A stretch of 64,000 nt of DNA from Novilysobacter viscosus (GCF_046600715.1 NZ_JBJMAV010000001.1:149980-213979); one strand, 5' to 3'; counted from the first letter of the stretch, positions 21,651 through 40,102 are shown. Numbers and translations: made by a program. The notes: generated from the sequence alone by a model not told the origin.

Positions 21651-23107
21651 ACTTCGGCCCAGAGCGCATCAACCCGGCGTTCGATGGCCGGTGCCAGCTG
21701 GATGGGCCGGCTCCACGTACGGCTGGTCTCGCCCGGCCACTTGTTGGTCGCGTCCAGGCCCAGTTTCGAGCCCAACCCGGGCCGTGGGCTGGCGAAATCC
21801 AGGTAGTCGATCGGCGTGTCGTTGACCAGCATCGAGTCGCGCGCCGGGTCGACCCGCGTCGACACCGCCCAGATCACCTGCGACCAGTCGCGCACGTCGA
21901 TGTCGTCGTCGGTGACGATCACGAACTTGGTGTAGGTGAACTGCCGCAGGTACGACCACACGCCCATCATGATGCGCCGCGCATGGCCGGCGTACTGCTT
22001 GCGGATCGACACCACCGCGATCCGGTAGGAGCAGGCTTCCGGCGGCAGGTAGAAGTCGACGATCTCCGGGAACACCTTGCGCAGGATCGGCACGAAGATG
22101 TCGTTGAGCGCCATCGCCAGCACCGATGGCTCGTCGTGGGGCGCCCGGCCCATGTAGCTGCCGTGGTAGATCGCGTCCTGCCGGAGGTGCATGCGCTCGA
22201 TGCCCAGCACCGGGAAGTGGTCGGCCGCGTTGTAATAGCCGGTGTGGTCGCCGAACGGGCCTTCCAGCGCGGTGTCGCCGGGTTGGATGACGCCTTCGAT
22301 GAGCATCTCGGCGCCGGCAGGGGCATCCAGGCCGGTGCGCTCGCTGTGCCAGAGCCGGGTGCGCTCACCCCGCAGCAGGCCCGCGAACTCGTACTCCGAC
22401 AGGGTGTCGGGCACCGGCGCCACTGCCGCGAGCATCGTGGCCGGATCGGCGCCGATGGCCACCAGCACCGGGAACGGCCGGTCGGGGTGGTCGGCGATCC
22501 AGTCGGCATGGTCCAGGGCACCACCGCGGTGCGGCAGCCAACGCATGATCACCCTGTCCGGGCCGATCACCTGCATCCGGTAGATGGCCACGTTCTGGCG
22601 CGGCTTGCGGGTGCCGCGGGTGATCACCAGGCCGAACGTGACCAGCCGCGCCGCGTCCCCGGGCCAACATTGCTGGATCGGAAGCCGCGAGAGGTCGATC
22701 TCGCTGCCGGCGAGCGTTTCGTGCCCGAACGCGGCTTCGCGTTCCCGCCTGGGGGCCACGTGTGCCAGTTGTGCCAGCTCCGGCCAGGTCGACAGGGCCT
22801 GCTTGAGGCTCGACGGCCAGCGCGGCTCCTTGATGGCCGCGAGCAGCTCGCCGAGCTCACGCAGGCTCGCCAACGGCCTCCCGGCCAGCGCCGCTTCGAT
22901 CCGGTCCCGATGGCCGAACAGGTTGCCCAGCAGCGAATGCCGCGCCCCGGTCGGGTTCTCCATGAGCAGTGCCGGCCCGCCGGCCTTGAGTGCGCGCAGG
23001 CACAGCGAAGTCGATTCAAGGTCCGGGTCCACCGGCTGCGGGACGCGGCGCAGCTGGCCCGTCGCCTCCAGGCGGGCAAGGAACGAACGCAGGTCGTGGT
23101 GGGCCAT
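21611..23107 (-). CDS. ubiD: 4-hydroxy-3-polyprenylbenzoate decarboxylase
   Basis: 498 aa, UbiD family (prFMN-dependent) motifs. Converges on the His-rich gene with a 40-nt overlap. Confidence 0.85.
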   Translation of the reverse strand: MAHHDLRSFLARLEATGQLRRVPQPVDPDLESTSLCLRALKAGGPALLMENPTGARHSLLGNLFGHRDRIEAALAGRPLASLRELGELLAAIKEPRWPSSLKQALSTWPELAQLAHVAPRREREAAFGHETLAGSEIDLSRLPIQQCWPGDAARLVTFGLVITRGTRKPRQNVAIYRMQVIGPDRVIMRWLPHRGGALDHADWIADHPDRPFPVLVAIGADPATMLAAVAPVPDTLSEYEFAGLLRGERTRLWHSERTGLDAPAGAEMLIEGVIQPGDTALEGPFGDHTGYYNAADHFPVLGIERMHLRQDAIYHGSYMGRAPHDEPSVLAMALNDIFVPILRKVFPEIVDFYLPPEACSYRIAVVSIRKQYAGHARRIMMGVWSYLRQFTYTKFVIVTDDDIDVRDWSQVIWAVSTRVDPARDSMLVNDTPIDYLDFASPRPGLGSKLGLDATNKWPGETSRTWSRPIQLAPAIERRVDALWAEVQSGNPGSSNSRV

Positions 23108-23438
23108 GGGCGGGGCGGGGCGTGGAGGGACACCGAGCCTCGCAGGTGGCGATCCGCCGTGCCCTGACGCCAGTCAAGCCGGGCGCGGGCCGGGTTGGCG
23201 GCAGCAGGCGCGCGGCCAACCGGGACGATCCGCGGACGCGGGAGCCGCACATACGTGTTCAATGGCAGTGCCGCGGCACGCTGCGCGGCGACAAGGCGTC
23301 TTGTCGAGCGACGCCCTGCCGAACCGAAGTGCACGGGCAAGGGACCGTCGCGACCCCGCCGCTCGTTGGGGTACCAGGCCGCGACTTGCGTCGCTCCTGT
23401 ATGAGCTGCGGCCGGTCCTGCCGGCCCAGCGCCGCCGG

Positions 23439-24536
23439 TCAGGTGGCGGTCGGCGCGGCGAGTCGCTTCTGCACGTCCTCGCGCATGCGGGCGAGGTCCG
23501 CCTCGGCCTGGCGGCGCTGTTCGATGCCTTCGCGGTGGATCTCGCGCACGTCCTCGACCGTCTGGATCAACTTGTCGTGGACATGCTGGAGCGTCTCCAT
23601 GTCGATCACGCCGCGCTGGTTGGCCTTGGCGGTGGCCACCGAACTCTCGTGCAGGAGGTCGGCATTGCGGCGCATGAGTTCGTTGGTGGCGTCGTCGATC
23701 GCGTTGGCCAGCTCGACCGCGTGCTTCTGCTCATTGAGCGAAAGCTGGATGGCGAAGCTGCGTTTCCATGCCGGGATGGTGATGTCGCGGACCGAGGTGA
23801 ACTTCTCGATCAGCTGCATCGCGTTGGCCTGGATCATCCGGACCATGGGCAACGACTGGTCGGCCGCGTGCTGCATCAGCAGCAGGTCCCCGACGCGCTT
23901 GTCGAGCAGGCGCAGCGCCATGTCAACCTGCTGGCGCCGGGTGCGCGAGGCGGGGTCCTCCGCGCCCTCCAGCCCGGCGCGTTCGTCGCCCAGCGCCTGC
24001 AGGCGCATCTTCCCCGCCGCGACATGCAGGCCGAGCTGGTGGCGTTCGGCCGCGACGATGTCGTGCATGCGGTCGAAATCGCGCACCCGCTTGGCCAGGT
24101 CGTCCTGCTGCCGCGTCAGGTCGCGCATCAGGTGTTCGATCTGCTCGTTGGTGGTGCTGAACTTCTGGACCAGCTCGCCCTTCGAGTCCCGCATCCTGTC
24201 CAGCAGCGGACCCACCACCGGCAGCTTGGAGCGGCCGCTGAACTTGTGCAGGTTGAGGTTGCGGGCGATGCGTACGACTTCGCCCAGCTTGTCGCCGGTC
24301 GCGTCGAGGTCGCGATTGCGGACCTGGTCGAGCAGGTCGCTGGAAAACTTCGTGGTCGCGGCCGCGACGTCGCGGCCGAAGCCCTGCACCTCGGTCGCGG
24401 GCAGCTCGGCCAGCGCGTGATGGATCGTGGACACCTGCTGCAGGTCGGCCGGAACCAGGCCAAGATTCTGCAGCGTCGCCTCATCCAGTCCCGGCGGCAG
24501 TTGCGTGGGTGCGAGGGGGGTGGTGGACTCGGTCAT
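23439..24536 (-). CDS. telA: TelA/KlaA-family toxic-anion-resistance protein
   Basis: Start MTESTTPLAP. Long coiled-coil TelA-like core (KFSSDLLDQVRNRDLDATGDKLGEVVRIARNL...). Its ATG overlaps the upstream stop (ATGA). Confidence 0.75.
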   Translation of the reverse strand: MTESTTPLAPTQLPPGLDEATLQNLGLVPADLQQVSTIHHALAELPATEVQGFGRDVAAATTKFSSDLLDQVRNRDLDATGDKLGEVVRIARNLNLHKFSGRSKLPVVGPLLDRMRDSKGELVQKFSTTNEQIEHLMRDLTRQQDDLAKRVRDFDRMHDIVAAERHQLGLHVAAGKMRLQALGDERAGLEGAEDPASRTRRQQVDMALRLLDKRVGDLLLMQHAADQSLPMVRMIQANAMQLIEKFTSVRDITIPAWKRSFAIQLSLNEQKHAVELANAIDDATNELMRRNADLLHESSVATAKANQRGVIDMETLQHVHDKLIQTVEDVREIHREGIEQRRQAEADLARMREDVQKRLAAPTAT

Positions 24537-25285
24537 GGCGATGGCTCCCTGTCGGCCGGGGTTGGATGTTGCGGAGTATGCGGTGTGGGCGCGGGCGCGG
24601 AGGCCTGGAGCGAGGCGATCAGCCGGCGCAGGGCGTGCTCGTCGTGTTCGGTCCCGCGAGGGGTGCCGGCGTTGGATCGCTTGTTGATCGCCGCCCCTGC
24701 CGCCTGCTGGTGCCACAGCGGCACGAGCAGGTCGCGTACCTGGTGGTAGCGCTCCAGTACCCGGCGGATGTGTGCGGCTTCCAGCTCCAGCTGTGCGCGG
24801 GTGGTGCGCCACGAGTCGCCGAGGGCCTGGAAGTAGTCAAGGCGACGATGGGCCGACGCGCCGGAAGCGGCGCAAGCCTCGCGGCTGCTGGTTACGAACG
24901 CGTCCATGGCGGCGATCTGCTGCTCCACCGGGACGGGTAGCGCCGCGAGGTCGGACAGATGCCGCTGGACGCGTTCTGCGTGTTCGCTGGCGTGTGCCAG
25001 GTGCACCCGCAGGCGCGCATCGGCTGCGTCCGGGTGCGCCTGGGCCACGAGGTCCCAGCCGAGCAGGCGGCCCAGGAGTCCCGCCCGGCGCCGGGTACGT
25101 TGCGCATCCGATGCGTCGATCACTTCGACGATCGCAGCCAGGTCGGCGAGCAGGCGGGCCGCCGGCGCGCGGGCGAGCAATCGGCTGATCGCCTCGAAGT
25201 CGAGACGCGATGCGATCTCGTGACCCCGGCGGTCGATCTCCCCGGGCGTGTCTGCAGCCGCGTTGCCGGCGCCGGGCGCGTTCAC
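24533..25285 (-). CDS. hypothetical 250-aa protein coupled between the giant ATPase and TelA (possibly XpaC-like)
   Basis: No recognisable motif. Helical, Ala/Arg-rich. Start and stop both overlap its neighbours. Confidence 0.55.
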   Translation of the reverse strand: MNAPGAGNAAADTPGEIDRRGHEIASRLDFEAISRLLARAPAARLLADLAAIVEVIDASDAQRTRRRAGLLGRLLGWDLVAQAHPDAADARLRVHLAHASEHAERVQRHLSDLAALPVPVEQQIAAMDAFVTSSREACAASGASAHRRLDYFQALGDSWRTTRAQLELEAAHIRRVLERYHQVRDLLVPLWHQQAAGAAINKRSNAGTPRGTEHDEHALRRLIASLQASAPAPTPHTPQHPTPADREPSP

Positions 25286-28200
25286 CGAGCCGCCGGTGCG
25301 TCCGCAAGGCCGGCATGCAGGCGCGCAAGGGCCTCATCGAGCCGGCGCTCCTCAGGTGTCGGAGTGTGCGGCGCGCGGCCGGTCGGAGGCCGGGCCGTCA
25401 TGCGGGCACGGATCGCGCTGGCCAGGTGGAGCATCGCGTTGCTCAGCTGGTCCTGGTGGCCCTGGCTTGAATGGATGGCGGCGACCAGAGGCTGGATTGC
25501 AGTCTTGACCAGCGCGTCGACGTCGTCCGTTCCGGGGCGCGGCGCGTCCACGCGGCGGTCAGCGACCACCCGCTCCAGCAGTGCCAGGGCGTCTTTCCAG
25601 GGCGGCGACTCGGACGCCGCCGGGGCATCGCCCGCCGGGCCGGCGACGGCACTACCCATCGCCTGCAGCCCACCGGCGATGTCGGCCAGCTGCGCCACCA
25701 CCCGGCCGCCGACGTCCGCGTCCTCGGCGCCCATCGCCTTGTTGCGCAGGAAGTCGTGCTTGATCTGCGCCCAGCGGGCCTGCTCGGTGGCGGTCAGCAC
25801 GCCGCGCAGCTCCTTGAGCTTGAGCAGGTTCTCCTCGGCACCGACGGTCAGAAGTTGCGCTTCGCCCTGGTAGTGGTCGCTGATCAGTTGCTGCAATTCA
25901 CCCTCGTTCATCACCGGCGAAATCTTCTCGACCAGCTTGTTCATGTTGCGATAGCTGCCCTGCAGCTTGAACGCCGGTTCGGTACGGTACTTGTCGGCCT
26001 GCGCGGCGGATGCGATGTACTGCTGGTTCACGCGGTACACGACATCGCGCACCTTCATGACCCGGACCAGGGTTTCGACGAACTCGTTGATCTCCGCCGC
26101 ACTGTAGGCATGGGACAGGTCGGTCGCCGAAACCTGCTCGCCCCGCGCCTTGTCGACGAGGCGATGGAGGTCGGCCAGGTCGCGCGTTGCAAGCGGCGCG
26201 AGCAGCGGACTGGAGGTCAGGCTGTTCTCGACGTAGCTCAGGGTGAAGGTGTCTTCCACCCCGCCCAGGACATCGCCCAGGTTGTAGATGTCGGCGCGGT
26301 TGGCCAGCATGTCGGGGATCTTGAACACTTCGCCCGACTCGGTGTACGGGTTTCCCGCCATGACCACGCAGAACTTCTTGCCGCGCATGTCGTAGGTGCG
26401 CGTCCGCCCCTTCCAGACGCCCTCGACGCGGCGCGTGCCATCGCATAGGGAGATGAACTTCTGCAGGAACTCGGGGTGCGTGTGCTGGATGTCGTCGACA
26501 TAGAGCATCACGTTGTTGCCCATCTCGAAGGCGAGGTTGAGCTTCTCCAGCTCCTGTCGCGACGTGGCGTCCGGCGCCTGCGCGGGGTCGACCGAACGGA
26601 CCTCGTGCCCCAGCGCGGGCCCGTTGATCTTCATGAAGACCAGGCCCAGCCGGCTTGCCACGTACTCCATGAGCGTCGTCTTGCCGTAGCCGGGGGGCGA
26701 AATCATCATCAGCAGGCCCATAAGGTCGCTGCGCTTGCCTTCCCCTGCGGTACCCATCTGCTTGGCGAGGTTGTCGCCGATGATCGGAAGGTAGACCTCG
26801 TTGATCAGCTTGTTGCGCACGAACGAGGACAGCGGACGCGCCTGGAATTCACCCAGCCGAAGCGCGGTGCGCTCGCGTGCGGCGACTTCGTTGCGCACCT
26901 GGTGGTAGCGCCGGAACCCGGGAACGAACCGTTCGCGGTGCACGCGCAGACGGGCGAGCAGGTCGTCGACGGCCAGCTCCATGCGCCCGTCTGAAATCCG
27001 CGGGTGATCGCCCAGCAAGCCCTCGACCGTGGTGGTGAGGGCCACCGGGTGGTCGCGGAACGAGAGCGCATCCCGCGCCAGGATCCATGCGGCGGACTCG
27101 GGGACGTACGGCGCCATCGCCGCCGCCGCCGGGGTGTTGCACAGTGCCTGGAGCCAGTGCAGGACGTGCTGCCAGCGGGCGTCGGGACGGTCCTCGAGCA
27201 GGTCCAAGGTGTGCTGGAAGGGCGCCTGCAAGCTCGCGCTGGCCAAGCGGGACTCCAGCATTTCGGCCAGTTCACGGCCCTGTCGCGAGAGCACCAGGCC
27301 CGGTTCGCCGCTGGTGAGGTGGTCGGACAGGAAGTCGGCGGCAGCCCTTGCGCAGGAGGCGTCGAATGGCAGCCCCCGCTCCTGCGCGAACCCGGCCAGT
27401 CGCGTGGCCATGTCGGCGCGCAAGGCGTCCAGGCTGTCGCGCGATCCGAACAGCCGGTGCATGGCCAACGCACCGGCGGCACGCGGCTCCCATTGGGCTA
27501 CGTCCGCATCGTCGCCGTGCGATGCCAGCAGCAGGGTCGCCAGTGCACGCGGCGCGGGGGCGTGGATTAGGTTGCCTGCGACGTCGCGCTGGGCCAGGAA
27601 GGCCCGGAGGATGAGTGCGGCGTCATGGTCGTGGATGCCCCGCTCGTAGCCATCGCGGTAGCGGGGCGCGGCGAACTCACGAACCGCCCGGGCGAGGGCG
27701 TCGGGGTCGCTCGCCAATTTCTGCAGCGTCTCATCGTCAAGCCCGTCGCTACCGGCCGAGGCCGCTGCGACCAGCTCGCCTGCGAGGTACTCCGCGCGGT
27801 ACAGCGCCGGTGATTCCGACTCCAGCCCCAGCTGCCAGTACTCACGCAGCTCCGCCAGCCTGGCGTCTTCGATGGGCTCCATGAAATCGGTGCCGGTCAG
27901 GTGCAGGGCCAGCCGGTCACCGCGCGGCAGGATAGTGAGGTCCAGCGGCTGGGTGTTCACGCTGAAGCGGTGGCGGCCCAGCCGGATGACCTGGCCGTCG
28001 CCCTCGAACAGATCCACGCGATCACGCAGTGCGCGCACGGCCTGGTCGCGCGCGCCCTTCAGCCGGGCTTCGACGTCATCGGCCTTCACCGAGTCCTTCA
28101 GTGAGCGCAGCCGCTCGGCGAGTTCGCGGACCTTGAGGATCAAGGGATCCCCGGCAAAGAAGGCGTTGAGTTCGTCGGGACTGGAGAACTTTTCGGTGCG

Positions 28201-30597
28201 CTTTCCCAGTCCGGAAAGGATGCGGTCGGCCGCGTCCAGCACCGACTGGGCCTTGCGGTGGCGGTCGTCGAGCAGCGCCTGCTTGTGCGCGTCGAAGGTC
28301 TCCAGCAGCTCTTCGCGCTTGGTCAGGATGTCGCCCAGGAACCGCTCGTGTTCGCCGAACTGGCTCTCAAGCTCTTCGAGCTGGACCATCAGCCGGGACA
28401 GCTGCTCGTCGGCTTTCTCCGGGTCGGTCGCCAATCCCAGGGCGCCGGTGATCGCCTGCCCGAACAGCGTGAACTGCGCGCCGAACTGGGCCACGGCCTC
28501 GGCCGAACCCAGCGCCCTGCGGCGTTGCTCTGCACGCGCGCGTGCCTGGTTGAGGCGGCTGTAGATCGCCGATACGGCCTCCACCACGCGGGTGCGCTGG
28601 GCCGGGTCGTCGACCTTCAGCGTGGCCATCAGTTCCGACAGCATGTCCAGGTCCGATGACATCGCCTGGAGCGCGGCGAGGCTTTCGGCCAGCTCCGTGG
28701 CGGTCTCCGCGCTCCGGGCCCGGCCGTCCAGCGCCACGACACCGTCCAGGTAGGGCGCAAGTGCGGTGTCCGAGGCAAGGAACACGCCCGTGGCGGCTGC
28801 AACCCGCTCATGCTGGACTTGGAGTTCGGCCCCCAGCGCGTCGATCGCCGGGACATCGATATACCTGTGTTCGCGGATCGTCAGCAGGTGGCCGCGCTGG
28901 CGCGTGATCTCGTTGAGCGCATCGACGAACTCCTGCACCTGAGTCCAGTTTTCCGGGAGCAGCCGGGCCACCAGGGCGGCGTGGTCGTCGCGCGCATCGG
29001 CCATTGCCTGCGCGGACTGCCGGCGGATGCCCTGGACCTTCTCGAACTCGTCGAGGACCGACTCGCCGGTCGCGGCGATCTCGCGAACCAGGCTGGCCAC
29101 GCCATCGCAGTGGGCGTCATCGATCCAGTGGTGGGCGTCGAACAGCTTGCGGGTGTCGCGGACCAGCAACTGGTAGCGCTGCAGCGACACCTCCTCGCTG
29201 CCAATCTCACGGGCGAGGCTCACCAGGTTGGAGATGCCGCGCACCAGCTCGGCATTGCCCAGTCGTCCCAGGTAGGTATTGCTCTCCGGCCGGCTTGCGG
29301 CGAACTCGTCGCTCACGAACGGCGTTTGCCAGGCCTGCATCGGATGGATGCGGGTCGGCCCATCGCCTTCGGCGTGGAAGATGACCATCCGGCCGTCGGC
29401 AAGGCGCGCGTAACCATGGCCGAACACCGGGTTGTGCAGTTGCCGCTGGATCATGTTGTAGACGAACAGGGCCGACCTGCCGGGGACCTGGTCATAGAAG
29501 ATGTAAAGCACGTCCTCGCCATTGGGCGAGCGGATCGCACGCTTGAACTGCATGCCGGACATGGCCGCGTCGAAGGCCTTGTGCTCGCCGTTCTGGAGGT
29601 AGTAGCCGCCGGGGAAGATGATCCCGTGGTCCTCGGGCAGCTGCACGCACGCCTGGATGATCGCGTCGTTGCGCTGCACGCGGCCGGTGAGTGTGTTGTA
29701 GATGAAACCGCGCCACTGGTCCTCGCGGTAGGGGAGGACCTTGAGCAGGACCAGCGAGCCGACCCGGGCGAAATCGAAGGTGGCGTCGTCCAGCGACTGG
29801 GTCTTGTCCTCGACCGGTTCGGAGTGGATGCCCTGGCCGCTCTCGGTGTTGTCCTCGACCTTGATGGTGAGGTCGCCCCCGGTCGTCTCCACGAACAGGG
29901 TGTCGAGCACGTTCAGGTGCGGATGCCGGCCGTTGACCATCAACTCGCGCGTCGCACGCGTCCATTCGAAGTCGAAGGCTGGGGGCATCGTCAGGTCGCG
30001 CTCGCCGCGCGCGTCGATGTAGGTCGCCTCGCCGCCGGGCGTCAACGACCACCGGAACACCCGCACGTCCGTGGTGCGCTCGCCGATCTGGAACGAGGCC
30101 AGCAACCTGCCGTCGCGAACGACCAGCTGCAGGAGGCGGGCGTTCTTGTAATAGGCGTAGAGCTCGGTGAAGTCCCGAGTGAACTGCGGGTCGCCCAGGA
30201 AGCTGCCGGCAAGTTCAACCGGCACCACGTCGAACCCGTCTTCAGTGGATACCAGCTGGTAGAGGCCGAACACGTCCTCGATCCGTGTGCTGGTCTTGAG
30301 GCCGATGAAGACGTTGTAGCCGAACAGGATCAGGTGGCCGACCTGGACGATGTCGCGGCCGATGCAGTTGTTGTCGGTGCGCACGCGGACGCGACCGATG
30401 ACCTCCATGGTGCTGCTGCCGAATTCTTCCACGCGCCGGGCATTCATCCGCTCGGCGGCGTCGCGCAGGCGCCGGCCCTGGTCGGACAGGCGCCGACGCA
30501 GCACCTCGTAGGCGCCTCCCTGCGCGACGGCCTGGTCGATCGGGTCGGACCCCGGCGCGGGGGAGGGATTGGATTCGGCGGGCGTGTTGGACGTCAT
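25282..30597 (-). CDS. giant (1771-aa) protein with a MoxR/AAA_5-type ATPase module near the C-terminus
   Basis: Walker A SPPGYGKTTL (about 26686-26703). Walker B VMLYVDDIQHTHPEFLQKF (about 26490-26508), which is MoxR-like DExxxAxPexq. Sensor VVMAGNP (about 26367). The rest is a long helical / coiled-coil region. Start chosen at MTSNTP; the upstream 39 codons were rejected. Confidence 0.8.
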   Translation of the reverse strand: MTSNTPAESNPSPAPGSDPIDQAVAQGGAYEVLRRRLSDQGRRLRDAAERMNARRVEEFGSSTMEVIGRVRVRTDNNCIGRDIVQVGHLILFGYNVFIGLKTSTRIEDVFGLYQLVSTEDGFDVVPVELAGSFLGDPQFTRDFTELYAYYKNARLLQLVVRDGRLLASFQIGERTTDVRVFRWSLTPGGEATYIDARGERDLTMPPAFDFEWTRATRELMVNGRHPHLNVLDTLFVETTGGDLTIKVEDNTESGQGIHSEPVEDKTQSLDDATFDFARVGSLVLLKVLPYREDQWRGFIYNTLTGRVQRNDAIIQACVQLPEDHGIIFPGGYYLQNGEHKAFDAAMSGMQFKRAIRSPNGEDVLYIFYDQVPGRSALFVYNMIQRQLHNPVFGHGYARLADGRMVIFHAEGDGPTRIHPMQAWQTPFVSDEFAASRPESNTYLGRLGNAELVRGISNLVSLAREIGSEEVSLQRYQLLVRDTRKLFDAHHWIDDAHCDGVASLVREIAATGESVLDEFEKVQGIRRQSAQAMADARDDHAALVARLLPENWTQVQEFVDALNEITRQRGHLLTIREHRYIDVPAIDALGAELQVQHERVAAATGVFLASDTALAPYLDGVVALDGRARSAETATELAESLAALQAMSSDLDMLSELMATLKVDDPAQRTRVVEAVSAIYSRLNQARARAEQRRRALGSAEAVAQFGAQFTLFGQAITGALGLATDPEKADEQLSRLMVQLEELESQFGEHERFLGDILTKREELLETFDAHKQALLDDRHRKAQSVLDAADRILSGLGKRTEKFSSPDELNAFFAGDPLILKVRELAERLRSLKDSVKADDVEARLKGARDQAVRALRDRVDLFEGDGQVIRLGRHRFSVNTQPLDLTILPRGDRLALHLTGTDFMEPIEDARLAELREYWQLGLESESPALYRAEYLAGELVAAASAGSDGLDDETLQKLASDPDALARAVREFAAPRYRDGYERGIHDHDAALILRAFLAQRDVAGNLIHAPAPRALATLLLASHGDDADVAQWEPRAAGALAMHRLFGSRDSLDALRADMATRLAGFAQERGLPFDASCARAAADFLSDHLTSGEPGLVLSRQGRELAEMLESRLASASLQAPFQHTLDLLEDRPDARWQHVLHWLQALCNTPAAAAMAPYVPESAAWILARDALSFRDHPVALTTTVEGLLGDHPRISDGRMELAVDDLLARLRVHRERFVPGFRRYHQVRNEVAARERTALRLGEFQARPLSSFVRNKLINEVYLPIIGDNLAKQMGTAGEGKRSDLMGLLMMISPPGYGKTTLMEYVASRLGLVFMKINGPALGHEVRSVDPAQAPDATSRQELEKLNLAFEMGNNVMLYVDDIQHTHPEFLQKFISLCDGTRRVEGVWKGRTRTYDMRGKKFCVVMAGNPYTESGEVFKIPDMLANRADIYNLGDVLGGVEDTFTLSYVENSLTSSPLLAPLATRDLADLHRLVDKARGEQVSATDLSHAYSAAEINEFVETLVRVMKVRDVVYRVNQQYIASAAQADKYRTEPAFKLQGSYRNMNKLVEKISPVMNEGELQQLISDHYQGEAQLLTVGAEENLLKLKELRGVLTATEQARWAQIKHDFLRNKAMGAEDADVGGRVVAQLADIAGGLQAMGSAVAGPAGDAPAASESPPWKDALALLERVVADRRVDAPRPGTDDVDALVKTAIQPLVAAIHSSQGHQDQLSNAMLHLASAIRARMTARPPTGRAPHTPTPEERRLDEALARLHAGLADAPAAR

Positions 30598-30667
30598 CGT
30601 GGAACCTCGCCCGCGCAGGCGGGCCATCCATGCTGCAATCGGGAGGGCAGGCGTCGGAGGCGGTCGC

Positions 30668-30925
30668 TCAGGCAACCTCGACCGGTACCGGCCCCAGTTT
30701 CCGGCGCAGCGCATCCAGGCGCACCTTCATTGCGGAATCGATCTCGTCGGGCTGGATGCGCGAGATGATGTTGTTGAGGACACGGCTCTCGTCGTCGTTG
30801 ATGGTGCCGTCGCGTTCGGCGATCGCCACGATCCGGTCGAGCTCGGCCGCCTCCAGGCGTCCGTCGTCGGCGAAGCAGGTGATGGAGTGGAAGGCCATTT
30901 CCAGGTGGTCGCGATTCACGGTCAT
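30668..30925 (-). CDS. small TerB-like (tellurite-resistance TerB N-domain-like) protein
   Basis: 85 aa, FADDGRLEAAELDRIVAIAERDGTINDDESRVLNNII resembles the TerB/DjlA N-terminal acidic helical repeat. AAGGA RBS. Confidence 0.45.
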   Translation of the reverse strand: MTVNRDHLEMAFHSITCFADDGRLEAAELDRIVAIAERDGTINDDESRVLNNIISRIQPDEIDSAMKVRLDALRRKLGPVPVEVA

Positions 30926-30992
30926 TTCGTGTGTCCTTGCGGGGTGGGCAATGCCGGCGGCAGGGCTGCCGCCAGCCATCAGAAGGCCGGGG

Positions 30993-33008
30993 TCAGGCAC
31001 CTGCTTCGGGGGTCGCCGCTGCGGCGCGTTCGCCGGTTCCCGGCTGCGGAAGCGTTGCAGTCGCAGGTGTGACGGCGTTGACGCCGAGATAGCGACTCAG
31101 CAGGTCCTGCACGATCGGACTCTTGCCTGCCAGGCCTTCGACGGCCTTGCCCAGCGAGAGCGACTTGGAGAACGCTTCGAACAGGCCGCCGTCGCCGCCG
31201 ACCAGGTCGATGTTGGCATTGCGAAGGGCGGCGGCGATGACTTCCGCGTTCTCCTTGGCGACATCCTTGCCCGCGGAGATCGATGCCAGAGCCTGCTGGA
31301 GGTGGATGTCCAGCGACATGCGGAACTCCTCGTGGCTGCGCGCATCGACCGACAACGAGTCGATCGCCTCGAACTTGCGCGTCAAGCCTTCCGCTTCGGC
31401 CATGAGCTTCTTGACCGTCACGTTTGCCTCCGCGCCGCCGATGGCCTCGACCGAGGCGGCATTGGCGTGGCCGAGCTTGGTGGTGCCCTCGGCCTCGGCG
31501 GCCATGCGCTCGGCGAGGACGCGGGCATCGTTGGTGCCCTCCACCAGCCGCGCGGCAGCCTTGGCTTCGATCACGCGCGCCTCGGCGATACCGTGCTTCT
31601 CGATGGCCTGGGCCTCGGCTTCGCGGACCTGGACTTCGGCCAGTCCCGGGGCGGCCTGCTCGGCCTTGACGCCGTCGGCCAGCACCCGCTTGGCTTCGGC
31701 CTCGCGGTTGGCAGCTTCCAGTTCCGCCTGTGCAAGCGTGGTGCGTTCCACCGCCCGATGCTTGGCAGCGGTCTCCGCGGCCTCGGCTTCCTTGACCTTG
31801 TGGACCAGGGCTTCCTGCGCGGCGGCCTCGGCGGCCAGCACGCGGGCCTGCTTTTCGCGGTCGGCCTCGGACACCACGCGCACTTCGTTGATCCGCTCTT
31901 CCTCGATCGCGACGGTCTTGTCGATCGCGATGCGCTCGCGGGTGATGTTGGCTACGTCCTTCTTGCCGACCTCGACGACCTTGTCGCGCTCGACGGCCTG
32001 CAACTGGACCTCACGATCGGTGGTGACCTTCTCCAGCTCGCGGGCCCGGACCACGCGCTCTTCCTCGATCGCAACCGCGCGCTGGCGGTTCTGGCCGGCG
32101 ACTTCCACTTCGCGATTCACGTTCTGCTCGCGGATCTGGATCTTCTCGTCCGACTCGAGCCGGGCCTGCTCGGCGATCAGCCGCTGCTCTTCCCGCACGC
32201 GCGCGGTTTCGGCCTCCTCGCGCGCACGGATGGTCTCGATCTCGCGCTGCTGGCGGGCTTCCGCCTCCGCCTGCTGCCTTTCCAGCGCCAGGGTCGCCTC
32301 GCGTGCCTCGACGTTCTTCTTGGTGATCGCCAGCTTTTCGTTCTGCTCCAGCTCGTTGGTGACGACGTTCTGCGTCGCCGTGATCTGGGTGATCTTCTTG
32401 ATGCCCTCCGAATCCATGATGTTGTTCGGATCGAGGTCGGACTTCCGGGTCTGCTCGAGGTAGTCGATGGCGACGTCCTCCAGCACGTAGCCATTGAGGT
32501 CGTTGCCGATCACCTTGATGATCTCGTCGCGGAATTCCTGGCGCTTCTCGAACAGCTCGGTGAACTCGAACTTCTTGCCGACGGTCTTCAACGCCTCGGA
32601 GAACTTGGCGTTGAACAGCTCGTCCACGGCCGCCTTGTCGGATGCGCGTTCGGCACCGACGGCCTTGGCTACGCGCAGCACGTCCTGCTGGGTCTCGTTC
32701 ACCCGCAGGTAGAAGGCCACGGAGATGTCCGCGCGCATGTTGTCGCGGCAGATCAGGCCCTCGCGCCCACGGCGGTCGACCTGCAGCGTGATCAGGCTGA
32801 TCTGCATCAGCTCGGCCTTGTACAGCACCGGGATGATCAGGCCGCCGGTGAAGCGGACCTTCGGCGTCGCGCTCAGGTCGTTGACGATCAGTGCGGTGCC
32901 TTGCGGGACCTTGATGTAGAACGCCTTGAACAGGCCGAAGATGCCGAGCAACACGACGAGTAGAACGCCTGCGCCGACGACGAACGGCAGGATCATGGAC
33001 ATGGTCAT
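30993..33008 (-). CDS. flotillin / SPFH-domain protein (YqiK-like)
   Basis: N-terminal TM, SPFH core (PQGTALIVN...KVRFTGGLIIPVLYKAELMQISL), a LDPNNIMDSEGIKKITQ block matching E. coli YqiK, then a long EA-rich coiled coil. 671 aa. Confidence 0.85.
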   Translation of the reverse strand: MTMSMILPFVVGAGVLLVVLLGIFGLFKAFYIKVPQGTALIVNDLSATPKVRFTGGLIIPVLYKAELMQISLITLQVDRRGREGLICRDNMRADISVAFYLRVNETQQDVLRVAKAVGAERASDKAAVDELFNAKFSEALKTVGKKFEFTELFEKRQEFRDEIIKVIGNDLNGYVLEDVAIDYLEQTRKSDLDPNNIMDSEGIKKITQITATQNVVTNELEQNEKLAITKKNVEAREATLALERQQAEAEARQQREIETIRAREEAETARVREEQRLIAEQARLESDEKIQIREQNVNREVEVAGQNRQRAVAIEEERVVRARELEKVTTDREVQLQAVERDKVVEVGKKDVANITRERIAIDKTVAIEEERINEVRVVSEADREKQARVLAAEAAAQEALVHKVKEAEAAETAAKHRAVERTTLAQAELEAANREAEAKRVLADGVKAEQAAPGLAEVQVREAEAQAIEKHGIAEARVIEAKAAARLVEGTNDARVLAERMAAEAEGTTKLGHANAASVEAIGGAEANVTVKKLMAEAEGLTRKFEAIDSLSVDARSHEEFRMSLDIHLQQALASISAGKDVAKENAEVIAAALRNANIDLVGGDGGLFEAFSKSLSLGKAVEGLAGKSPIVQDLLSRYLGVNAVTPATATLPQPGTGERAAAATPEAGA

Positions 33009-33035
33009 TGCTACCTCTCCTTGGGATTCGAGCTC

Positions 33036-33671
33036 TTACAGGGTCTGGAACTGCCGTTCCGGTATCACGCGATAGGCATGCTGCGCATCGAGGTATTCGA
33101 TAAGCACGACGCGGTCGCCGCGTTTGAAGCGACCGGTCTCTCCGTCCCGCACCTGCAGCACCAGGCCCGCGCCGCCGTCGTCGACGGTGGCCGTGCCGTA
33201 GTCGGTGGCGACCTCCGGCGAGTTGACCACCGCCACGCGTCCCAGCAGCGACGGGTCAAGCGGTGGGCGCAGCTTGAGCAGCAACCGGCTCAGGGGGCGC
33301 AGCAGGACGGAGGTGAGCACGATGCCCGGGACCAGCATGGCCAGCGCGACGGCCGCGCCGGCGAACAGCCGCAGGCCCTCGCCCAGGTGGGCGAGTACGA
33401 GCAGGTGCACGAAATAGGTACCGATCCAACCCACGAACGCCAGCACGGTGGCCACCAGCATCAACGGGACACCTGACAGGCCGAGCCTTGAAATCATGGC
33501 GGCCGCGCCACTGGAGTCCGGGCTGTCGCCGTCGCCACCCAGCAGGCCGTCCAGTGCATCGATCTCGACCAGTCCGGTCGCTGCCAGGGCCCAGTAGATC
33601 GTGCAGACTGCCAGCACGACGCTGTAGGCGAGGGTGGGGAATGACAGTGCGGTTGTCAGGAACTCACTCAC
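33036..33671 (-). CDS. NfeD-like (YqiJ/DUF1449) membrane protein with C-terminal OB-fold
   Basis: Four TMs plus GRVAVVNSPEVATDYGTATVDDGGAGLVLQVRDGETGRFKRGDRVVLIEY, an NfeD beta-barrel. Canonical partner of flotillin. Confidence 0.75.
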   Translation of the reverse strand: MSEFLTTALSFPTLAYSVVLAVCTIYWALAATGLVEIDALDGLLGGDGDSPDSSGAAAMISRLGLSGVPLMLVATVLAFVGWIGTYFVHLLVLAHLGEGLRLFAGAAVALAMLVPGIVLTSVLLRPLSRLLLKLRPPLDPSLLGRVAVVNSPEVATDYGTATVDDGGAGLVLQVRDGETGRFKRGDRVVLIEYLDAQHAYRVIPERQFQTL

Positions 33672-34437
33672 GTGGGCTCTCCTTGCGGATGGTGGCGCGG
33701 CGCCGTTTCCGGGCCGGAGTCGCTTCCTTGCCTGCCGCGCCGGTCTCAGCGGCCTGGGCGGCCAGCCGGGTCAGCACGTTCTCGACGGCGGGGGGCGTGG
33801 CGGTGATTCCTGCTGCCTGGAGCTTCTCGTCGAGCGGATCGTGCGGGACGTTGCCGCTCGATGGCCGGGCCCGGGTCGGGGGGGTCGACTGGCGGGAACG
33901 CAGCAATTCCGCCGAATCGATCGCCGTCGGGATTCCGGTGCCGGTACCCGACGCGCCCCCTGCGAACGCCTTCTCCGCGCTGGCGACGGCCTCGGAGGCA
34001 CGCAGCAGGTCAAGCTCGTGCTTGAGGCGCCTGAGGGCGTTGTGTCCGTGCCGCACCATGGCATCCAGCTCGGAGGCCCGGTCCGCGTTGTCCGTGAGCA
34101 ATGCCTGTTCCGCATCGCGCTCGGATTCCAGCTCGACGATCGACAGGGCGACTTCGCGGGCAAGGGCTGGCTGGCCGGCCCGCAGCGCAGCCACCGCCTG
34201 GGCCTCGCGCTGCACGATCTTCTCCAGGGTCGCTTCGTGCCGTTCCTGCGCGGTGTAGCGCTGCGCTTTCAGTACGTCGAGTTCGCGCCGGAGCGTCTTG
34301 AGCTCCTCGTCCACGCGGTGGATGCGATCGTCCAGGGCACGTCCTGCATTCCACTCGCGGACTCCGCCGCGCACCGTGTCGCCGATATCGGCGATCTGTG
34401 CACCGAGGCGGGCCAGAAGGGTGTCGCGGCGCTTCAC
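33664..34437 (-). CDS. PspA/IM30 (Vipp1/YjfJ-like) family protein
   Basis: PspA-type coiled coil (LARLGAQIADIGDTVRGG...LKTLRRELDVLKAQRYTAQERHEATLEKIVQREAQAVAALRAG). 257 aa. Confidence 0.8.
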   Translation of the reverse strand: MKRRDTLLARLGAQIADIGDTVRGGVREWNAGRALDDRIHRVDEELKTLRRELDVLKAQRYTAQERHEATLEKIVQREAQAVAALRAGQPALAREVALSIVELESERDAEQALLTDNADRASELDAMVRHGHNALRRLKHELDLLRASEAVASAEKAFAGGASGTGTGIPTAIDSAELLRSRQSTPPTRARPSSGNVPHDPLDEKLQAAGITATPPAVENVLTRLAAQAAETGAAGKEATPARKRRRATIRKESPRE

Positions 34438-35093
34438 GATGCGCTTGCCTCGTCATGCGGCCACACCTCATCACGCAGGAAGGCCCCGTATGCATCGACA
34501 CATGCGATGACATTGCCCGCAAGTGCTTCGATCTCGAACAGGATGTCGGCCAGGGGGGAATGCGTGCCGAGCGATCCGAACATGACATAGCTCGGCACGC
34601 CGGCGACCGGCTCGATGCCCATCGTGGTCAGCGGCCACAGCTTGTGCGTGCGCAGGACGCGGGCATTGAAGGCGGCCGGATCGGACACGTGGTCGAGCGG
34701 CCACATCAACACCTGGACGACGATCTGCAGGCCGCCGACGGCGACGAAGACCGGAAGGTCACCGTAGTCGCGCATCACCAGGCGCAGCGTCGGGTCGGCA
34801 CCCTCGGAGCGGTGCACTTCGATGCTCCCGGATCCAACGGGGGTGGATCCTTCGATGGCGCGCTGCAGTGCGGCCAGCGTCCACCCCGGTTCGCCCGGAG
34901 TCTCGCGCAGGCAGTCGATCCCCGGGGCTTCGCCGGACGCGGGCGCCTGGCGAAAGCGTTGTTCGACAGCGGCCAGATCCTCCGAGAACTCGGGGCGGAT
35001 CCACACGTCCTTCTTGACGAGGCCGGCGTTGCGCATCCGCGCGCGGAACTCGCGTACGTAATCGGCGGACGAGCGTGGCTTCCCTGCTTTCAT
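34434..35093 (-). CDS. YjfI-like DUF2170 protein with an about 90-aa N-terminal extension
   Basis: C-terminal 130 aa, LPVFVAVGGLQIVVQVLMWPLDHVSDPAAFNARVLRTHKLWPLTTMGIEPVAGVPSYVMFGSLGTHSPLADILFEIEALAGNV, fits the YjfI family. First gene of the operon. Confidence 0.65.
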   Translation of the reverse strand: MKAGKPRSSADYVREFRARMRNAGLVKKDVWIRPEFSEDLAAVEQRFRQAPASGEAPGIDCLRETPGEPGWTLAALQRAIEGSTPVGSGSIEVHRSEGADPTLRLVMRDYGDLPVFVAVGGLQIVVQVLMWPLDHVSDPAAFNARVLRTHKLWPLTTMGIEPVAGVPSYVMFGSLGTHSPLADILFEIEALAGNVIACVDAYGAFLRDEVWPHDEASAS

Positions 35094-35117
35094 GTAAGCA
35101 TCCTAGTTTCTTACATG
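35091..35117 (-). promoter_or_regulatory. perfect 8-bp inverted repeat CATGTAAG-N11-CTTACATG overlapping the start codon / SD of the first operon gene
   Basis: Seen directly in the sequence. The mRNA would fold as CAUGUAAG-aaacuAGGAugc-CUUACAUG, with the SD in the loop and the AUG in the 3' arm. Lies in an AT-rich leader. Confidence 0.6.
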
Positions 35118-35142
35118 TAACTTTACAACCCGGCCACCTAGC

Positions 35143-35176
35143 GTGCCGACGAACGGTTCGTTCGCCCAATCGGCAC
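35143..35176. promoter_or_regulatory. nested palindrome GTGCCGAcgaacgGttcgttcgcccaaTCGGCAC in the operon leader
   Basis: 7-bp outer arms enclosing ACGAAC-g-GTTCGT. No T-run follows, so an operator is more likely than a terminator. Confidence 0.4.
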
Positions 35177-35215
35177 ATGGGCTCAGCCCCGGTCGTCCCC
35201 CGGCAGGCGCTTCTT

Positions 35216-36310
35216 CTAGAGCCCCCGCCATTCCCCGGTGGCAATGATCGCACGCAGCGCGGCGTCCGGGCCGGAGGCGTCCAGTCCGCGCTGTGCCAGC
35301 CACGCCCGGTCGTAGAGCGTTGCGTCGTAGCTTTCGCCCGGGTCGCACAGCAGGCTGACGATGCTGCCCTGCATGCCTGCCGTTCGCATGCGCGCTGCCA
35401 GTTGCAGGCATCCGACCAGGTTGGTGCCCGACGAGCCGCCATAACGCCGGCCAAGGTGTTCCTCCAACAAGTGCATGGCGGCGATGGAGGCGGTGTCGGG
35501 AACCTCGACCACGTCGTCGACCACGTCGAACAGGAAGCCCGGCTCCACGCGTGGTCGGCCGATGCCTTCGATCACCGTCGGCATGCTGCAGGTGGCATCG
35601 CGGTCGCGCTGGCGCCAGCCGTGGATGAACGCGCTGCCGGCGGGGTCGGCGACGCACAGGCCGGTCGGCAGGCTGCGGTAGCGCAGGTAGCGGCCGATGG
35701 TGGCCGAGGTTCCGCCGGTCCCCGCGCCGCAAACGATCCAGGCGGGCTCGGGGTGGGGTTCGCCGGCCAGCTGGCCGATGATCGATTCGGCGATGTTGTT
35801 GTTGCCGCGCCAGTCGGTGGCGCGTTCGGCCAGGCCGAACTGGTCGAGGTGGCAGGCCCCGTTGCGGGCATGCCAGTCGGCGCGCTCGTACACCTGCGCG
35901 GGGTCGTCGACCAGGTCGCAACGGCCCCCGAGCGCCTGCACGTCGGCGATCTTGCGCGGTGCGGTGCACGCCGGCATCACCGCGGTGAATTCCAGCCCGA
36001 GCAATCGCGCGAACCAGGCTTCCGAGATCGCGGTGCTGCCGGACGACGCGTCCACCACCGGCTGCCCACGCCGCAGGCGACCGTTGCACAGCGCATACAG
36101 GTACAGCGAGCGGGCGAGGCGGTGCTTGAGGCTGCCGGTGGGGTGGGCGGCTTCGTCCTTGAAGTAGAAGTCGATGCCGGGGAATCCCGGGAACCCGAGC
36201 TTCAGCAGGTGGGTGTCGGCCGATCGCGCGGCTTCCTGCCGCAGCCGGGCCAGCGACTGCCCGGTCCACTCGCGCATGTCCGCGACGGTCGGGGCAGGCG
36301 CGATGTTCAC
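35216..36310 (-). CDS. PLP-dependent cysteine-synthase-family (CysK/CBS/SbnA-like) enzyme
   Basis: PLP lysine motif PTGSLKHRLA, Gly-rich loop GAGTGGT, 364 aa. Confidence 0.75.
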   Translation of the reverse strand: MNIAPAPTVADMREWTGQSLARLRQEAARSADTHLLKLGFPGFPGIDFYFKDEAAHPTGSLKHRLARSLYLYALCNGRLRRGQPVVDASSGSTAISEAWFARLLGLEFTAVMPACTAPRKIADVQALGGRCDLVDDPAQVYERADWHARNGACHLDQFGLAERATDWRGNNNIAESIIGQLAGEPHPEPAWIVCGAGTGGTSATIGRYLRYRSLPTGLCVADPAGSAFIHGWRQRDRDATCSMPTVIEGIGRPRVEPGFLFDVVDDVVEVPDTASIAAMHLLEEHLGRRYGGSSGTNLVGCLQLAARMRTAGMQGSIVSLLCDPGESYDATLYDRAWLAQRGLDASGPDAALRAIIATGEWRGL

Positions 36311-38292
36311 GCGCCGGTTTCCAGCAGGCTGCTGATCCGCCGGCCCAGGTAGGCCAGGTACATGTCGATGTAGCTGATGCCGTTGGCGTGGTCGACCAGG
36401 TAAGGGTTCATCAGCGTATGCCGCAGGATCACCAGCCGGTCGTTGTCATTGCCGCCGTCGGGGTCCAGGGTGCCGGGGTCGAGCCCGATCGAGCCCAGGA
36501 TCCGCCGCATCTCGACGTCGCCCACCGCCTCGGGTCGCAGCGTGGTCATTGATCCGAAGAACTGCTTGAGCTGGAGCGGCTGGCGCGGGTCGCAACGCAG
36601 CTCGTCGTGGATCCTGCGCACGAACGCATTGGCCACCGACAGGTCGGCATTGCCCGCCGGGTTGATCGCCAGGCAGACCAGGTTGCTGTCGGGCGCGAAG
36701 GGCACGGCCACCCGTGCCACGCCCTCCAGCTCGCGGGCCAGCCCCAGTGCCGCTTCGTGCAGCGCCTCGGCCGCGAGCACGGTCTGCCGCGGCAGGTGTC
36801 CGAAGTTGAGGTGGTCCAGCGGCAGCACCTTGTGGGTGACATAGACCGCGGCCGCCGCCGCGCCGGACTTGGAGCCTTCGGGTACGAACTGGCCGAGCTG
36901 GCGATAGCGGGTGAGGTAGTTCCGGGCCGGATCCGGGTCGGCCGGGCCTTCGCGGAACACATAGTCCGCCGCTTCCGACAGCAGCGCGGTGGCGCGATGG
37001 TCACGGCAGATGAAGGCGCCGGCCCCGTAGGGCAGGTAGCCCAGTTTGTGCGGATCGACGGTGACCGAATCGGTCCGCCCCAGTGCGGCGAACGCGGCGT
37101 GTACCTCGGGCAACGGGAAGCGTGCGAAGTCCTCGCGCACCTCGTCGAGACCACGCAGGCTGCCATCGGGATTGCGGAACAGCGTGGCGAGATAACCACC
37201 CCATGCACCGTCCACGTGCACGCTGAAGCCCAGGCCCATACGCAGCGCGCGTTCCCGGGCGTCTACCACCGCGTCGACGGGATCGACCGTGCCGTACTCG
37301 GTGGTGCCCAGCACGGCTACCGCCAGCAGCACCGGCTGGCGCTCGCGCTCGCATCGCTGCAGCGTCGATTCGAGTGCGTCCGCATCCAGGCGCATGCCGC
37401 GCTCGGGCAACAGTTCGAGCTGGTCGCGACCGAGCCCGAGCAGCTTCAATCCCTTGCTCCAGGAATAGTGCGCAGTGATCGGTGCCAGCACCTTCGGCAC
37501 CCGCAGGTCCGGGTGGCGGGCGAAGAACCCGACCATGCCGAGGTGTTCCAGCCGCTCGGCCTGCACCGCCTCCCGCCAGCGCCTGCGGTCGCGGGGCGAC
37601 TGCGCGGCGAGCCAGTCCTGCCACTGCACCACCAGCCCGGTACCGGCATCGGGGCCGGTGTTGAACACGGACCAGTCATCGCCGGGAAGCTCGATGTCCG
37701 GTACGCCTGCCGCCCGCAACGCGACCGGGAACGCCTTCAGCGCGAGCGCCAGCCGCAGTGCCTGGTAGTTGGCGACGGTACCGCCGGAGGTGAGGTGTCC
37801 GAAGGCGCAGTCGGGCTGCGCGGGATCGTTCGGGTAGCCCAGCATGCGCGCCAGTTGCAGGCCGACCTGGACTTCCAGGTCGATCGTGACGGGCGCGGCA
37901 TCTTCGCTGACGTTGTTGGGGTTGTAGGGCAGGGTGAGGATCTGTGCGGCCAGCCCGGGCAGCAACAGGTCGGACGCCATGTGGCCGATGTAGCGGGGGC
38001 TGTGGAACGGCACCGACCTCTTGAGCGAGGCCGACAGCTGGTGGAGCTCGCGCCGAAGCCGGGCCTCGAAGGCCTGGTACCCGGGCTGTTGCGCGGCGTG
38101 GGTCGGGATCGCCGGCGGATCCTCGGGATGGAAGTTGCGGCGCCAGTAGACGTGGTCGCGCAGGAACTCCACCACCAGCTTCTCCAGCATGGTGTCGTTC
38201 TCGCCGTACGGGCCGAGGAACAGGGCGTCCAGCATGCCCCGGTCAGGGTCGCTCCCGGCGCGGCTCGTCGATGGGGGCAGCGGGCCGGACAT
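36307..38292 (-). CDS. group II PLP-dependent amino-acid decarboxylase
   Basis: SPRYIGHMASD...TLPYNPNNVSEDAAPVTIDLE, HLTSGGTVANYQAL, HVDGAWGG and VDPHKLGYLPYGAG (PLP-Lys) match the DDC/GAD/CSAD family. Start is uncertain (38292 or 38235). Confidence 0.7.
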   Translation of the reverse strand: MSGPLPPSTSRAGSDPDRGMLDALFLGPYGENDTMLEKLVVEFLRDHVYWRRNFHPEDPPAIPTHAAQQPGYQAFEARLRRELHQLSASLKRSVPFHSPRYIGHMASDLLLPGLAAQILTLPYNPNNVSEDAAPVTIDLEVQVGLQLARMLGYPNDPAQPDCAFGHLTSGGTVANYQALRLALALKAFPVALRAAGVPDIELPGDDWSVFNTGPDAGTGLVVQWQDWLAAQSPRDRRRWREAVQAERLEHLGMVGFFARHPDLRVPKVLAPITAHYSWSKGLKLLGLGRDQLELLPERGMRLDADALESTLQRCERERQPVLLAVAVLGTTEYGTVDPVDAVVDARERALRMGLGFSVHVDGAWGGYLATLFRNPDGSLRGLDEVREDFARFPLPEVHAAFAALGRTDSVTVDPHKLGYLPYGAGAFICRDHRATALLSEAADYVFREGPADPDPARNYLTRYRQLGQFVPEGSKSGAAAAAVYVTHKVLPLDHLNFGHLPRQTVLAAEALHEAALGLARELEGVARVAVPFAPDSNLVCLAINPAGNADLSVANAFVRRIHDELRCDPRQPLQLKQFFGSMTTLRPEAVGDVEMRRILGSIGLDPGTLDPDGGNDNDRLVILRHTLMNPYLVDHANGISYIDMYLAYLGRRISSLLETGA

Positions 38293-38299
38293 CGCGACG

Positions 38300-38701: not shown

Positions 38702-38732
38702 GGGAAGCTTCCTTGGAGTACGGGCCGAGCGG

Positions 38733-39965: not shown

Positions 39966-40000
39966 GTCGACAGGATGAAGGTTGGTGGCGTGCAGGTCAT

Positions 40001-40014
40001 TGATTTGGATCACG
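40001..40014. promoter_or_regulatory. FNR/NNR box TTGATttggATCAc upstream of nnrS
   Basis: 9/10 match to TTGAT-N4-ATCAA, centred about 42 bp upstream of the nnrS ATG. Confidence 0.6.
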
Positions 40015-40046
40015 GGTGCCACGGATGACCGGGGTCGGCGGCGCGG

Positions 40047-40081: not shown

Positions 40082-40102
40082 CTTTTCCTGTCCAACATCC
40101 GG

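Follow-up and report, generated by a model that had tools for sequence, protein, structure and literature searches.

The closest described relative of the locus studied here is the bac operon of Pseudomonas aeruginosa (PA3732-PA3727), in which bacA to bacF were found to be co-transcribed by reverse transcription PCR (RT-PCR) (Wallart 2024). In a bacA mutant, BacB to BacF accumulate 6- to 13-fold (Wallart 2024), and BacB is induced by osmotic shock (Mace 2008). An interaction between BacA and BacB has been predicted with AlphaFold2 (AF2) at a probability of 0.981, and PA3728, listed as an ATPase, is recurrently mutated in cystic fibrosis isolates. A gene neighbourhood combining CesT/Tir-PspA, band-7/flotillin, YqiJ/YuaF and novel AAA+ components was reported by Ravi et al. 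2024 (mSystems, PMC11237479), together with an abbreviated flotillin-YqiJ-AAA+ form and an optional PLD gene. Here we analysed an eight-gene operon at positions 23439-35093 on the minus strand of a 64,000-nucleotide stretch of Novilysobacter viscosus DNA (the window; NZ_JBJMAV010000001.1:149980-213979), which has a GC content of ~69% and belongs to a Lysobacteraceae genome. The author of a preliminary description was aware of no described system uniting these genes with a giant AAA+ protein in one transcription unit. This does not apply to the core of the operon, which is that of P. aeruginosa bacABCDEF and of the neighbourhood of Ravi et al. 2024 (PMC2587700, PMC10948618, PMC11237479). What is new is the KlaA/TelA gene pair attached to the operon, together with a conserved site of putative self-regulation; we could not find an earlier description of KlaA/TelA attachment to this operon class in the literature. 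We consider it fairly probable that the operon belongs, as a Lysobacter/Novilysobacter representative, to the bac-type envelope-stress class, extended by a coupled KlaA-like/TelA pair and working as proposed below.

A bac-type core with a coupled KlaA/TelA pair

Open reading frame (ORF) and sequence reading placed eight co-oriented genes, mostly overlapping or closely spaced, at the positions first described; we number them g1 to g8 in the order of transcription. The first gene, g1 (34434-35093, 219 amino acids (aa)), is overlapped by 4 nt (GTGA) by g2 (33664-34437, 257 aa), which is in turn overlapped by 8 nt by g3 (33036-33671, 211 aa). Gaps of 27, 67 and 70 nt precede g4 (30993-33008, 671 aa), g5 (30668-30925, 85 aa) and g6 (25282-30597, 1771 aa), respectively, and 4-nt overlaps join g6 to g7 (24533-25285, 250 aa) and g7 to g8 (23439-24536, 365 aa). 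Proteins of Lysobacter sp. A3-1-A15 (Novilysobacter) matched the g5 and g7 products with 100% identity from end to end, and the g1 product over 91% of its length. The genes end at 35093; the extent originally given, 23439-35220, also covers a promoter region of 122 nt and the stop codon of the gene before it. A terminator scan found no intrinsic-terminator-like site on the coding strand inside the cluster, no Rfam family matched, and a repeat search returned only GC-rich noise. A 331-nt non-coding gap separates the end of g8 from ubiD. Within it, 13 nt past the g8 stop codon, a GC-rich hairpin without a U-tract (GGCCGG-cagga-CCGGCC, 23410-23426, minus strand), which was not reported by the terminator scan, might conceivably mark the operon end.

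Six of the eight family assignments in the preliminary description (g1, g2, g3, g4, g6 and g8) stood, and ORFs and assignments together bore out its picture of a tightly coupled cluster of membrane-associated and membrane-remodelling proteins around a giant AAA+ protein. The g1 product is a BacA/YjfI-like protein with a conserved N-terminal domain of ~55 aa and a C-terminal DUF2170/CesT-like domain (Pfam DUF2170, 8.9e-40); its residues 71-207 matched the crystal structure of P. aeruginosa BacA (PDB 8q8o, E 6e-33). Over its whole length it scored 219.2 bits against the NCBIfam BacA model, below the equivalog cutoff of 300 bits, so that we regard it as a homologue outside the Pseudomonas equivalog and not as a curated BacA equivalog. 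The g2 product is a BacB-like member of the PspA/IM30 (ESCRT-III-like) family (Pfam PspA_IM30, 5e-19), with 36% identity to the P. aeruginosa BacB region. PspB, PspC and PspF were not found by Pfam among the eight products.

The assignment of g3 as a YqiJ/YuaF-type (NfeD-like), BacC-like membrane protein came from profile-profile comparison: g3 had no Pfam match, and a 27-member family profile aligned with E. coli YqiJ over 155 columns (hhalign, 95% probability, E 4e-8). Identity to the P. aeruginosa homologue was 48%. For SPFH2 flotillins, YqiJ and YuaF are recognised as NfeD-like partners (PMC2636767). The g4 product is a BacD-like bacterial flotillin of the YqiK type (SPFH2), with 61% identity to its P. 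aeruginosa homologue and 28% identity to E. coli YqiK over 456 aa (BLASTP, E 7e-40). It matched no Pfam model, Band_7 and Flot included, and no NCBIfam model, with the limit set as high as E 10, and a single-sequence search of the PDB found no match; the silence of Band_7 and Flot, despite clear homology to YqiK, may be a gap in model sensitivity or an effect of the bias filter. At the same limit, Pfam and NCBIfam gave nothing useful for g3, g5 or g7 either, and searching the PDB with the g4 and TelA sequences or with a profile of g3, g5 or g7 produced no significant match.

At the centre of the operon stands g6, a BacE/PA3728-like protein of 1771 aa made up of DUF3686 (~residues 44-490; Pfam 6.8e-197), DUF7902 (4.6e-25), a long helical stretch, an AAA+ module (~1290-1470) and a variable C-terminal tail. 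Its Walker A (SPPGYGKTT), Walker B (LYxDDIQH) and sensor (MAGNPYTE) motifs were invariant across 68 homologues. Of the earlier description of g6 as a giant MoxR-type ATPase, the 1771-aa AAA+ protein was confirmed and the MoxR clade is a candidate: the Pfam AAA model (1.4e-5) scored 26.0 bits against a cutoff of 21.2 and AAA_5 (2.2e-5) scored 24.9 bits against a cutoff of 22, and the PDB matches were confined to the Walker A region. Judged by eye, the layout of motifs from Walker B to sensor 1 is MoxR-like.

In a scan limited to a single genome for each species, at least 549 genomes encoded a g6 relative, and we compared the best 80 of these loci (designated by L numbers below). All 80 contain g6; g4 adjoins in 76 of them and g3 in 71, and almost every exception coincides with a contig end. 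The order g3-g4-g6 recurs in 71-76 of the loci. The g1-g2 dyad occurs in ~22 loci. A tblastn search found g1 in 22 loci, g2 in 19, g5 in 17, g8 in 10 and g7 in 8, and ORF inspection raised the count for g7 to all ten TelA-bearing loci. YqiJ-flotillin-AAA+ is therefore the invariant core, and DUF2170-PspA, g5, PLD, rhomboid and KlaA/TelA are lineage-specific add-ons, of which the window operon has the DUF2170-PspA dyad, g5 and KlaA/TelA and lacks the PLD gene. The recurrence of the g3-g4-g6 order and of the g6-g7-g8 overlaps in relatives is far beyond chance.

P. aeruginosa was absent from the top 120 homologues of g1, and its contigs were retrieved by way of an RT-PCR primer from the literature. 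In those that encode the exact 8q8o BacA sequence, tblastn found the order g1-g2-g3-g4-g6, that is, DUF2170, PspA-like, YqiJ-like, flotillin and giant ATPase, with identities of 43% (g1), 36% (g2), 48% (g3), 61% (g4) and 69% (g6, N-terminal 90 aa). The window operon differs in carrying g5 between g4 and g6, and KlaA/TelA downstream of g6; bacF was not seen in our analysis, and KlaA/TelA have not been reported for the bac operon. The five core components of the window are exactly those of Ravi et al. 2024, and both the abbreviated core form and the optional PLD gene were present among the 80 loci, whereas TelA/KlaA and the g5 family are unmentioned in the main text or supplement of that study, and the N-terminal domain of the DUF2170 protein and the operator are not described there (PMC11237479). 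The flotillin-NfeD-like and DUF2170-PspA dyads are also homologous to E. coli yqiJK and yjfIJ and to B. subtilis yuaFG (floT), but in E. coli the two dyads lie at separate loci, without a giant AAA+ protein.

The last two genes are a pair. g8 is TelA (KlaB-like), as first described (Pfam TelA, 9.1e-73), with 42% identity to IncP KlaB/TelA (E 6e-83) and 48% identity to the TelA of a Xanthomonas IncP plasmid. g7, which had been listed as an unknown, proved by profile comparison to be a KlaA-like short TelA paralogue, translationally coupled to both g6 and g8. A word-based search with g7 retrieved only three relatives, single-sequence tblastn against plasmids found no match, and direct hhalign of g7 with g8 was weak (probability 14-32%). 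The link to TelA is made instead by the KlaA comparison and by an exhaustive profile search, which collected 178 family clusters, nearly all of 200-275 aa, whose distant members P0110 and P0117 exceed the Pfam TelA threshold. The g7 family profile aligned with IncP KlaA at 97-98% probability (hhalign, E 4.6e-11 and 1.6e-14), tblastn with KlaA matched g7 orthologues directly (E 2e-10 to 5e-7), and KlaA itself exceeds the Pfam TelA threshold.

On IncP and IncHI2 plasmids the order is klaA-telA-klaC, with the same translational coupling. The profile matches, the tblastn matches and this shared coupling identify g7-g8 as a klaA-telA-like pair without klaC/telB, a homologue of which was not matched by tblastn in the window or in the 80 loci. 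The likeness to klaA-klaB-klaC (kilA/telA) of IncP (RK2) and IncHI2 thus lies in a KlaA-like gene of ~250-270 aa coupled to TelA, with both genes homologous; the plasmid determinant, however, stands alone under KorA/KorB control, whereas the pair in the window is chromosomal and joined to the 3' end of the AAA+ gene. This junction is conserved. The 4-nt g6/g7 and g7/g8 overlaps were kept in all ten TelA-bearing loci of Lysobacter, Cognatilysobacter and Stenotrophomonas, and they persisted while g7 orthologues diverged to 24-27% identity across the three genera. In a metagenomic locus (L082), a distant g7 member (P0060) lies between an AAA+ C terminus 58% identical to g6 and TelA. Among the 80 loci, KlaA/TelA are confined mainly to Lysobacteraceae; TelA is also found directly after the AAA+ gene in a Kangiellaceae metagenome-assembled genome, and in its vicinity in an Arenicella genome. 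A 355-aa gene that precedes TelA in the Kangiellaceae genome was considered as a g7 relative and found on comparison to be unrelated.

A conserved palindrome upstream of long-form g1 genes

The upstream regions of long-form g1 genes (208-237 aa) carry a palindrome, TYACATGTRA. The exact motif occurred 25 times in 1.745 Mb of related loci, with 24 of the 25 copies within ~80 nt upstream of a long-form g1, and in the same sequence no exact copy lay near a short-form g1 (136-151 aa). E. coli YjfI, at ~133 aa, is presumably a short form. Allowing up to one mismatch, a copy starts at -27 or -28 in 21 of the 22 long-form g1 loci, P. aeruginosa included, and 14 loci have a second copy at -49 to -53; in the clade of the window the second copy is found at -4 instead. 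Alignment of the long-form proteins showed that their N-terminal segment of ~55 residues is highly conserved, and operator and N-terminal domain always co-occur in the long-form g1 loci. The arrangement suggests that g1 is an autorepressor, with the N-terminal domain as its candidate DNA-binding domain.

In the window, the candidate promoter/operator region (35094-35128, minus strand) contains the palindrome TTACATGTAA (35111-35120) inside the 17-nt spacer between a -35-like hexamer, TTGTAA (35123-35128), and a -10-like hexamer, TAGGAT (35100-35105), with the ATG of g1 6 nt further on. An imperfect second copy, TTACATGAAA (35088-35097, minus strand), overlaps the g1 start codon (-4 to +6), and this -4 copy is also present in the closest clade of the window (L001, L003-L006). 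In L036 the -27 copy likewise lies in the 17-nt spacer, there between consensus-like hexamers (TTGACA-N17-TATAAT), and it is positional homology with this and other loci that supports the promoter assignment in the window. The -10-like hexamer is 6-8 nt from the ATG across the long-form g1 loci, which suggests a leaderless g1 transcript made from a sigma-70-type promoter. No match to a relaxed sigma-54 pattern (GG-N10-GC) precedes g1 in the window or in 20 of the 22 loci. Further upstream, ~55-65 nt from g1, lies the motif CCGTTCGTCGG (35146-35156, minus strand), which in the window is part of an inverted repeat CGAACG-aac-CGTTCG; the motif is kept in most Lysobacter-group loci (at least L001, L003-L006, L014, L016, L024, L032 and L033).

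The same architecture, a two-domain BacA with an operator at -27, was found in P. aeruginosa, whereas the published model has a 146-aa BacA and a sigma-54 promoter. The bacA ORF (L085:1286-1906) runs 60 codons upstream to an ATG and encodes a g1-type N-terminal domain, and it is preceded by two palindromes, TTACATGTGA, at -49 and -27. This extension is missing from the published BacA (PA3732/PA14_16140, 146 aa) in its annotation, its crystal construct and its regulatory model, and Wallart 2024 does not mention a DNA-binding domain in BacA. The start codon of bacA in P. aeruginosa is probably mis-annotated. In the window genome, too (35037-35093), RefSeq gives g1 200 aa (P0169), with a start inside the conserved N-terminal domain; the start at the ATG at 35093 is supported because most homologues have 208-220 aa.

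Accessory genes and flanks

The fifth gene had been described as TerB-like. It had no TerB (PF05099) match in Pfam or NCBIfam even at E up to 10, and a lone JGI record is the only TerB-like label that we found for the family. Two further searches gave the TerB reading no support either: a PDB profile search gave just sub-threshold EF-hand-like matches, and Foldseek of the AF2 model against the PDB returned nothing at E < 3. The homologue alignment showed a repeated DG..(D/E)E motif, and this model (predicted local distance difference test (pLDDT) score 66) predicts four helices for g5. Its homologues, in 17 of the 80 loci, vary in position: between g4 and g6, upstream of g1 (L014, L016, L022, L024, L032 and L033) or after the AAA+ gene; in L038, L040 and L043 the homologue follows a rhomboid gene. 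g5 thus behaves as a mobile accessory module. We found no relation between g5 and the N-terminal extension of the accessory PLD protein.

Other accessory genes among the 80 loci encode PLD-family (12 loci), rhomboid (7 loci) and Zn-ribbon (10 loci) proteins. The PLD-family gene (PLDc_2, ~230 aa) lies after TelA in L002-L006 and L008 and after the AAA+ gene in L016, L017, L022, L024, L032 and L033.

Downstream of the window operon lie UbiD (21611-23107) and a U32 peptidase (19841-20839), possibly UbiU/V-like and acting in O2-independent ubiquinone synthesis. The upstream flank (35216-41234) holds a cysteine-synthase-like pyridoxal phosphate (PLP) enzyme, a large PLP decarboxylase and an 833-aa NnrS fusion protein (38733-41234). 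This arrangement of UbiD, U32 peptidase, PLP enzymes and NnrS is shared only with L. spongiicola, the closest relative and one of the 80 loci, and by eye we found no FNR box upstream of the operon; the context of an FNR/denitrification island suggested in the preliminary description is therefore not conserved.

Proposed workings and alternative explanations

We propose that a g1 dimer would repress its own promoter, with its N-terminal domain on TYACATGTRA in the sigma-70-type spacer, and that its CesT-like domain would bind the PspA-like g2, coupling repression to the state of g2. Membrane damage would then derepress the operon. Flotillin g4 and the NfeD-like g3 may form a membrane scaffold, and g2 would polymerise on the damaged membrane. 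Through its predicted beta-propeller and coiled-coil arms, g6 might assemble or disassemble helical membrane-peripheral polymers, by analogy with Vps4 acting on ESCRT-III, and KlaA/TelA could be additional clients or partners of g6. With ESCRT-III/Vps4 and PspA-PspF the locus shares a gene for a PspA/ESCRT-III polymer beside one for an AAA+ ATPase, and the proposed circuit would share negative feedback between PspA and transcription. Unlike Vps4, g6 has no MIT domain and has a DUF3686 N terminus; unlike the classical Psp system, with its sigma-54 activator, the window operon would be regulated by a repressor that is fused to a chaperone fold.

Several observations weigh against this proposal. 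The published experiments on the operon class were done in P. aeruginosa, an organism other than that of the window, and Mace 2008 and Wallart 2024 propose a sigma-54 promoter for bacA (PMC2587700, PMC10948618). The promoter hexamers in the window are weak (8/12) and were not called in a promoter scan, and the window has a single full palindrome. The N-terminal segment of g1 and its relatives matched the Pfam MazE-like family PF11455 in 12 of 14 members, but below threshold (best E 0.0019). In g6, Walker B reads DD instead of DE, and the PDB profile matches (Cdc48, Rix7, RuvB and midasin) span only the Walker A region. The functional tie of KlaA/TelA to the core is suggested by gene coupling, and most loci have no TelA, which the core machine can therefore do without.

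A different function was also considered, that of an anti-phage or conflict system in which infection would be sensed by the giant NTPase and met by the membrane modules (PspA, flotillin, TelA and, in relatives, PLD) through defence at the membrane or abortive infection. In P. aeruginosa, PA3728-PA3732 belong to a set of 17 genes with raised expression in every phage-infected sample, but PspA systems are phage-induced as a general membrane-stress response. TelA and the ter genes have historically been connected with resistance to phage and colicins, and the modular accessory genes (PLD, rhomboid and Zn-ribbon) are of a kind seen in defence islands; the flanks of the window operon, however, carry no mobile or defence genes, and no PADLOC-DB family matched the eight proteins, bar a meaningless match of g7 to JetA (E 0.005). 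The operon is, moreover, a stable chromosomal feature, found in at least 549 species and vertically coherent within genera. We consider a dedicated defence function unlikely.

The operon might instead be two independent neighbouring units, a bac-type operon and a klaA-telA tellurite determinant acquired from IncP-like plasmids. The homology of g7-g8 to IncP/IncHI2 klaA-telA (TelA 42-48% identity) fits such an origin, and most AAA+ loci lack TelA, so that the core evidently works without it. However, independent units would not readily account for the 4-nt overlaps kept across three genera despite the divergence of g7, and seen again in L082, or for TelA after the AAA+ gene in the distant Kangiellaceae genome. 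RK2 tellurite resistance needs all three kla/tel genes, and klaC/telB is absent here. Two independent units are, in our judgement, quite unlikely. Least probable by far is a dedicated nitrosative or anaerobic envelope protection that belongs to a denitrification island and is controlled by an FNR-type regulator: NnrS, UbiD and the U32 peptidase do flank the operon, but such flanks recur in L. spongiicola only, the conserved upstream elements are TYACATGTRA palindromes and not FNR boxes, and the same operator is found in aerobes and unrelated contexts, P. aeruginosa included.

Returning to the bac-type envelope-stress reading, we advance a more specific and more tentative proposal in two parts: that long BacA/YjfI proteins are chaperone-repressors whose CesT-like part senses free PspA, and that KlaA/TelA are partners or clients of the flotillin-PspA-AAA+ machine. 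That both parts hold together is possible but somewhat doubtful. If they do, a leaderless sigma-70/operator model would replace the published sigma-54 model of the bac operon, and the long-enigmatic TelA tellurite-resistance proteins would gain a concrete cell-biological role. The operator and the overlooked BacA domain suggest a simple autoregulatory circuit that is directly testable, and the coupling of KlaA/TelA to the operon gives a testable handle on the function of the TelA family. The DUF3686-AAA+/flotillin/PspA machine itself is widespread, with relatives in at least 549 species genomes, and is tied in P. aeruginosa to biofilm, virulence and the response to phage.

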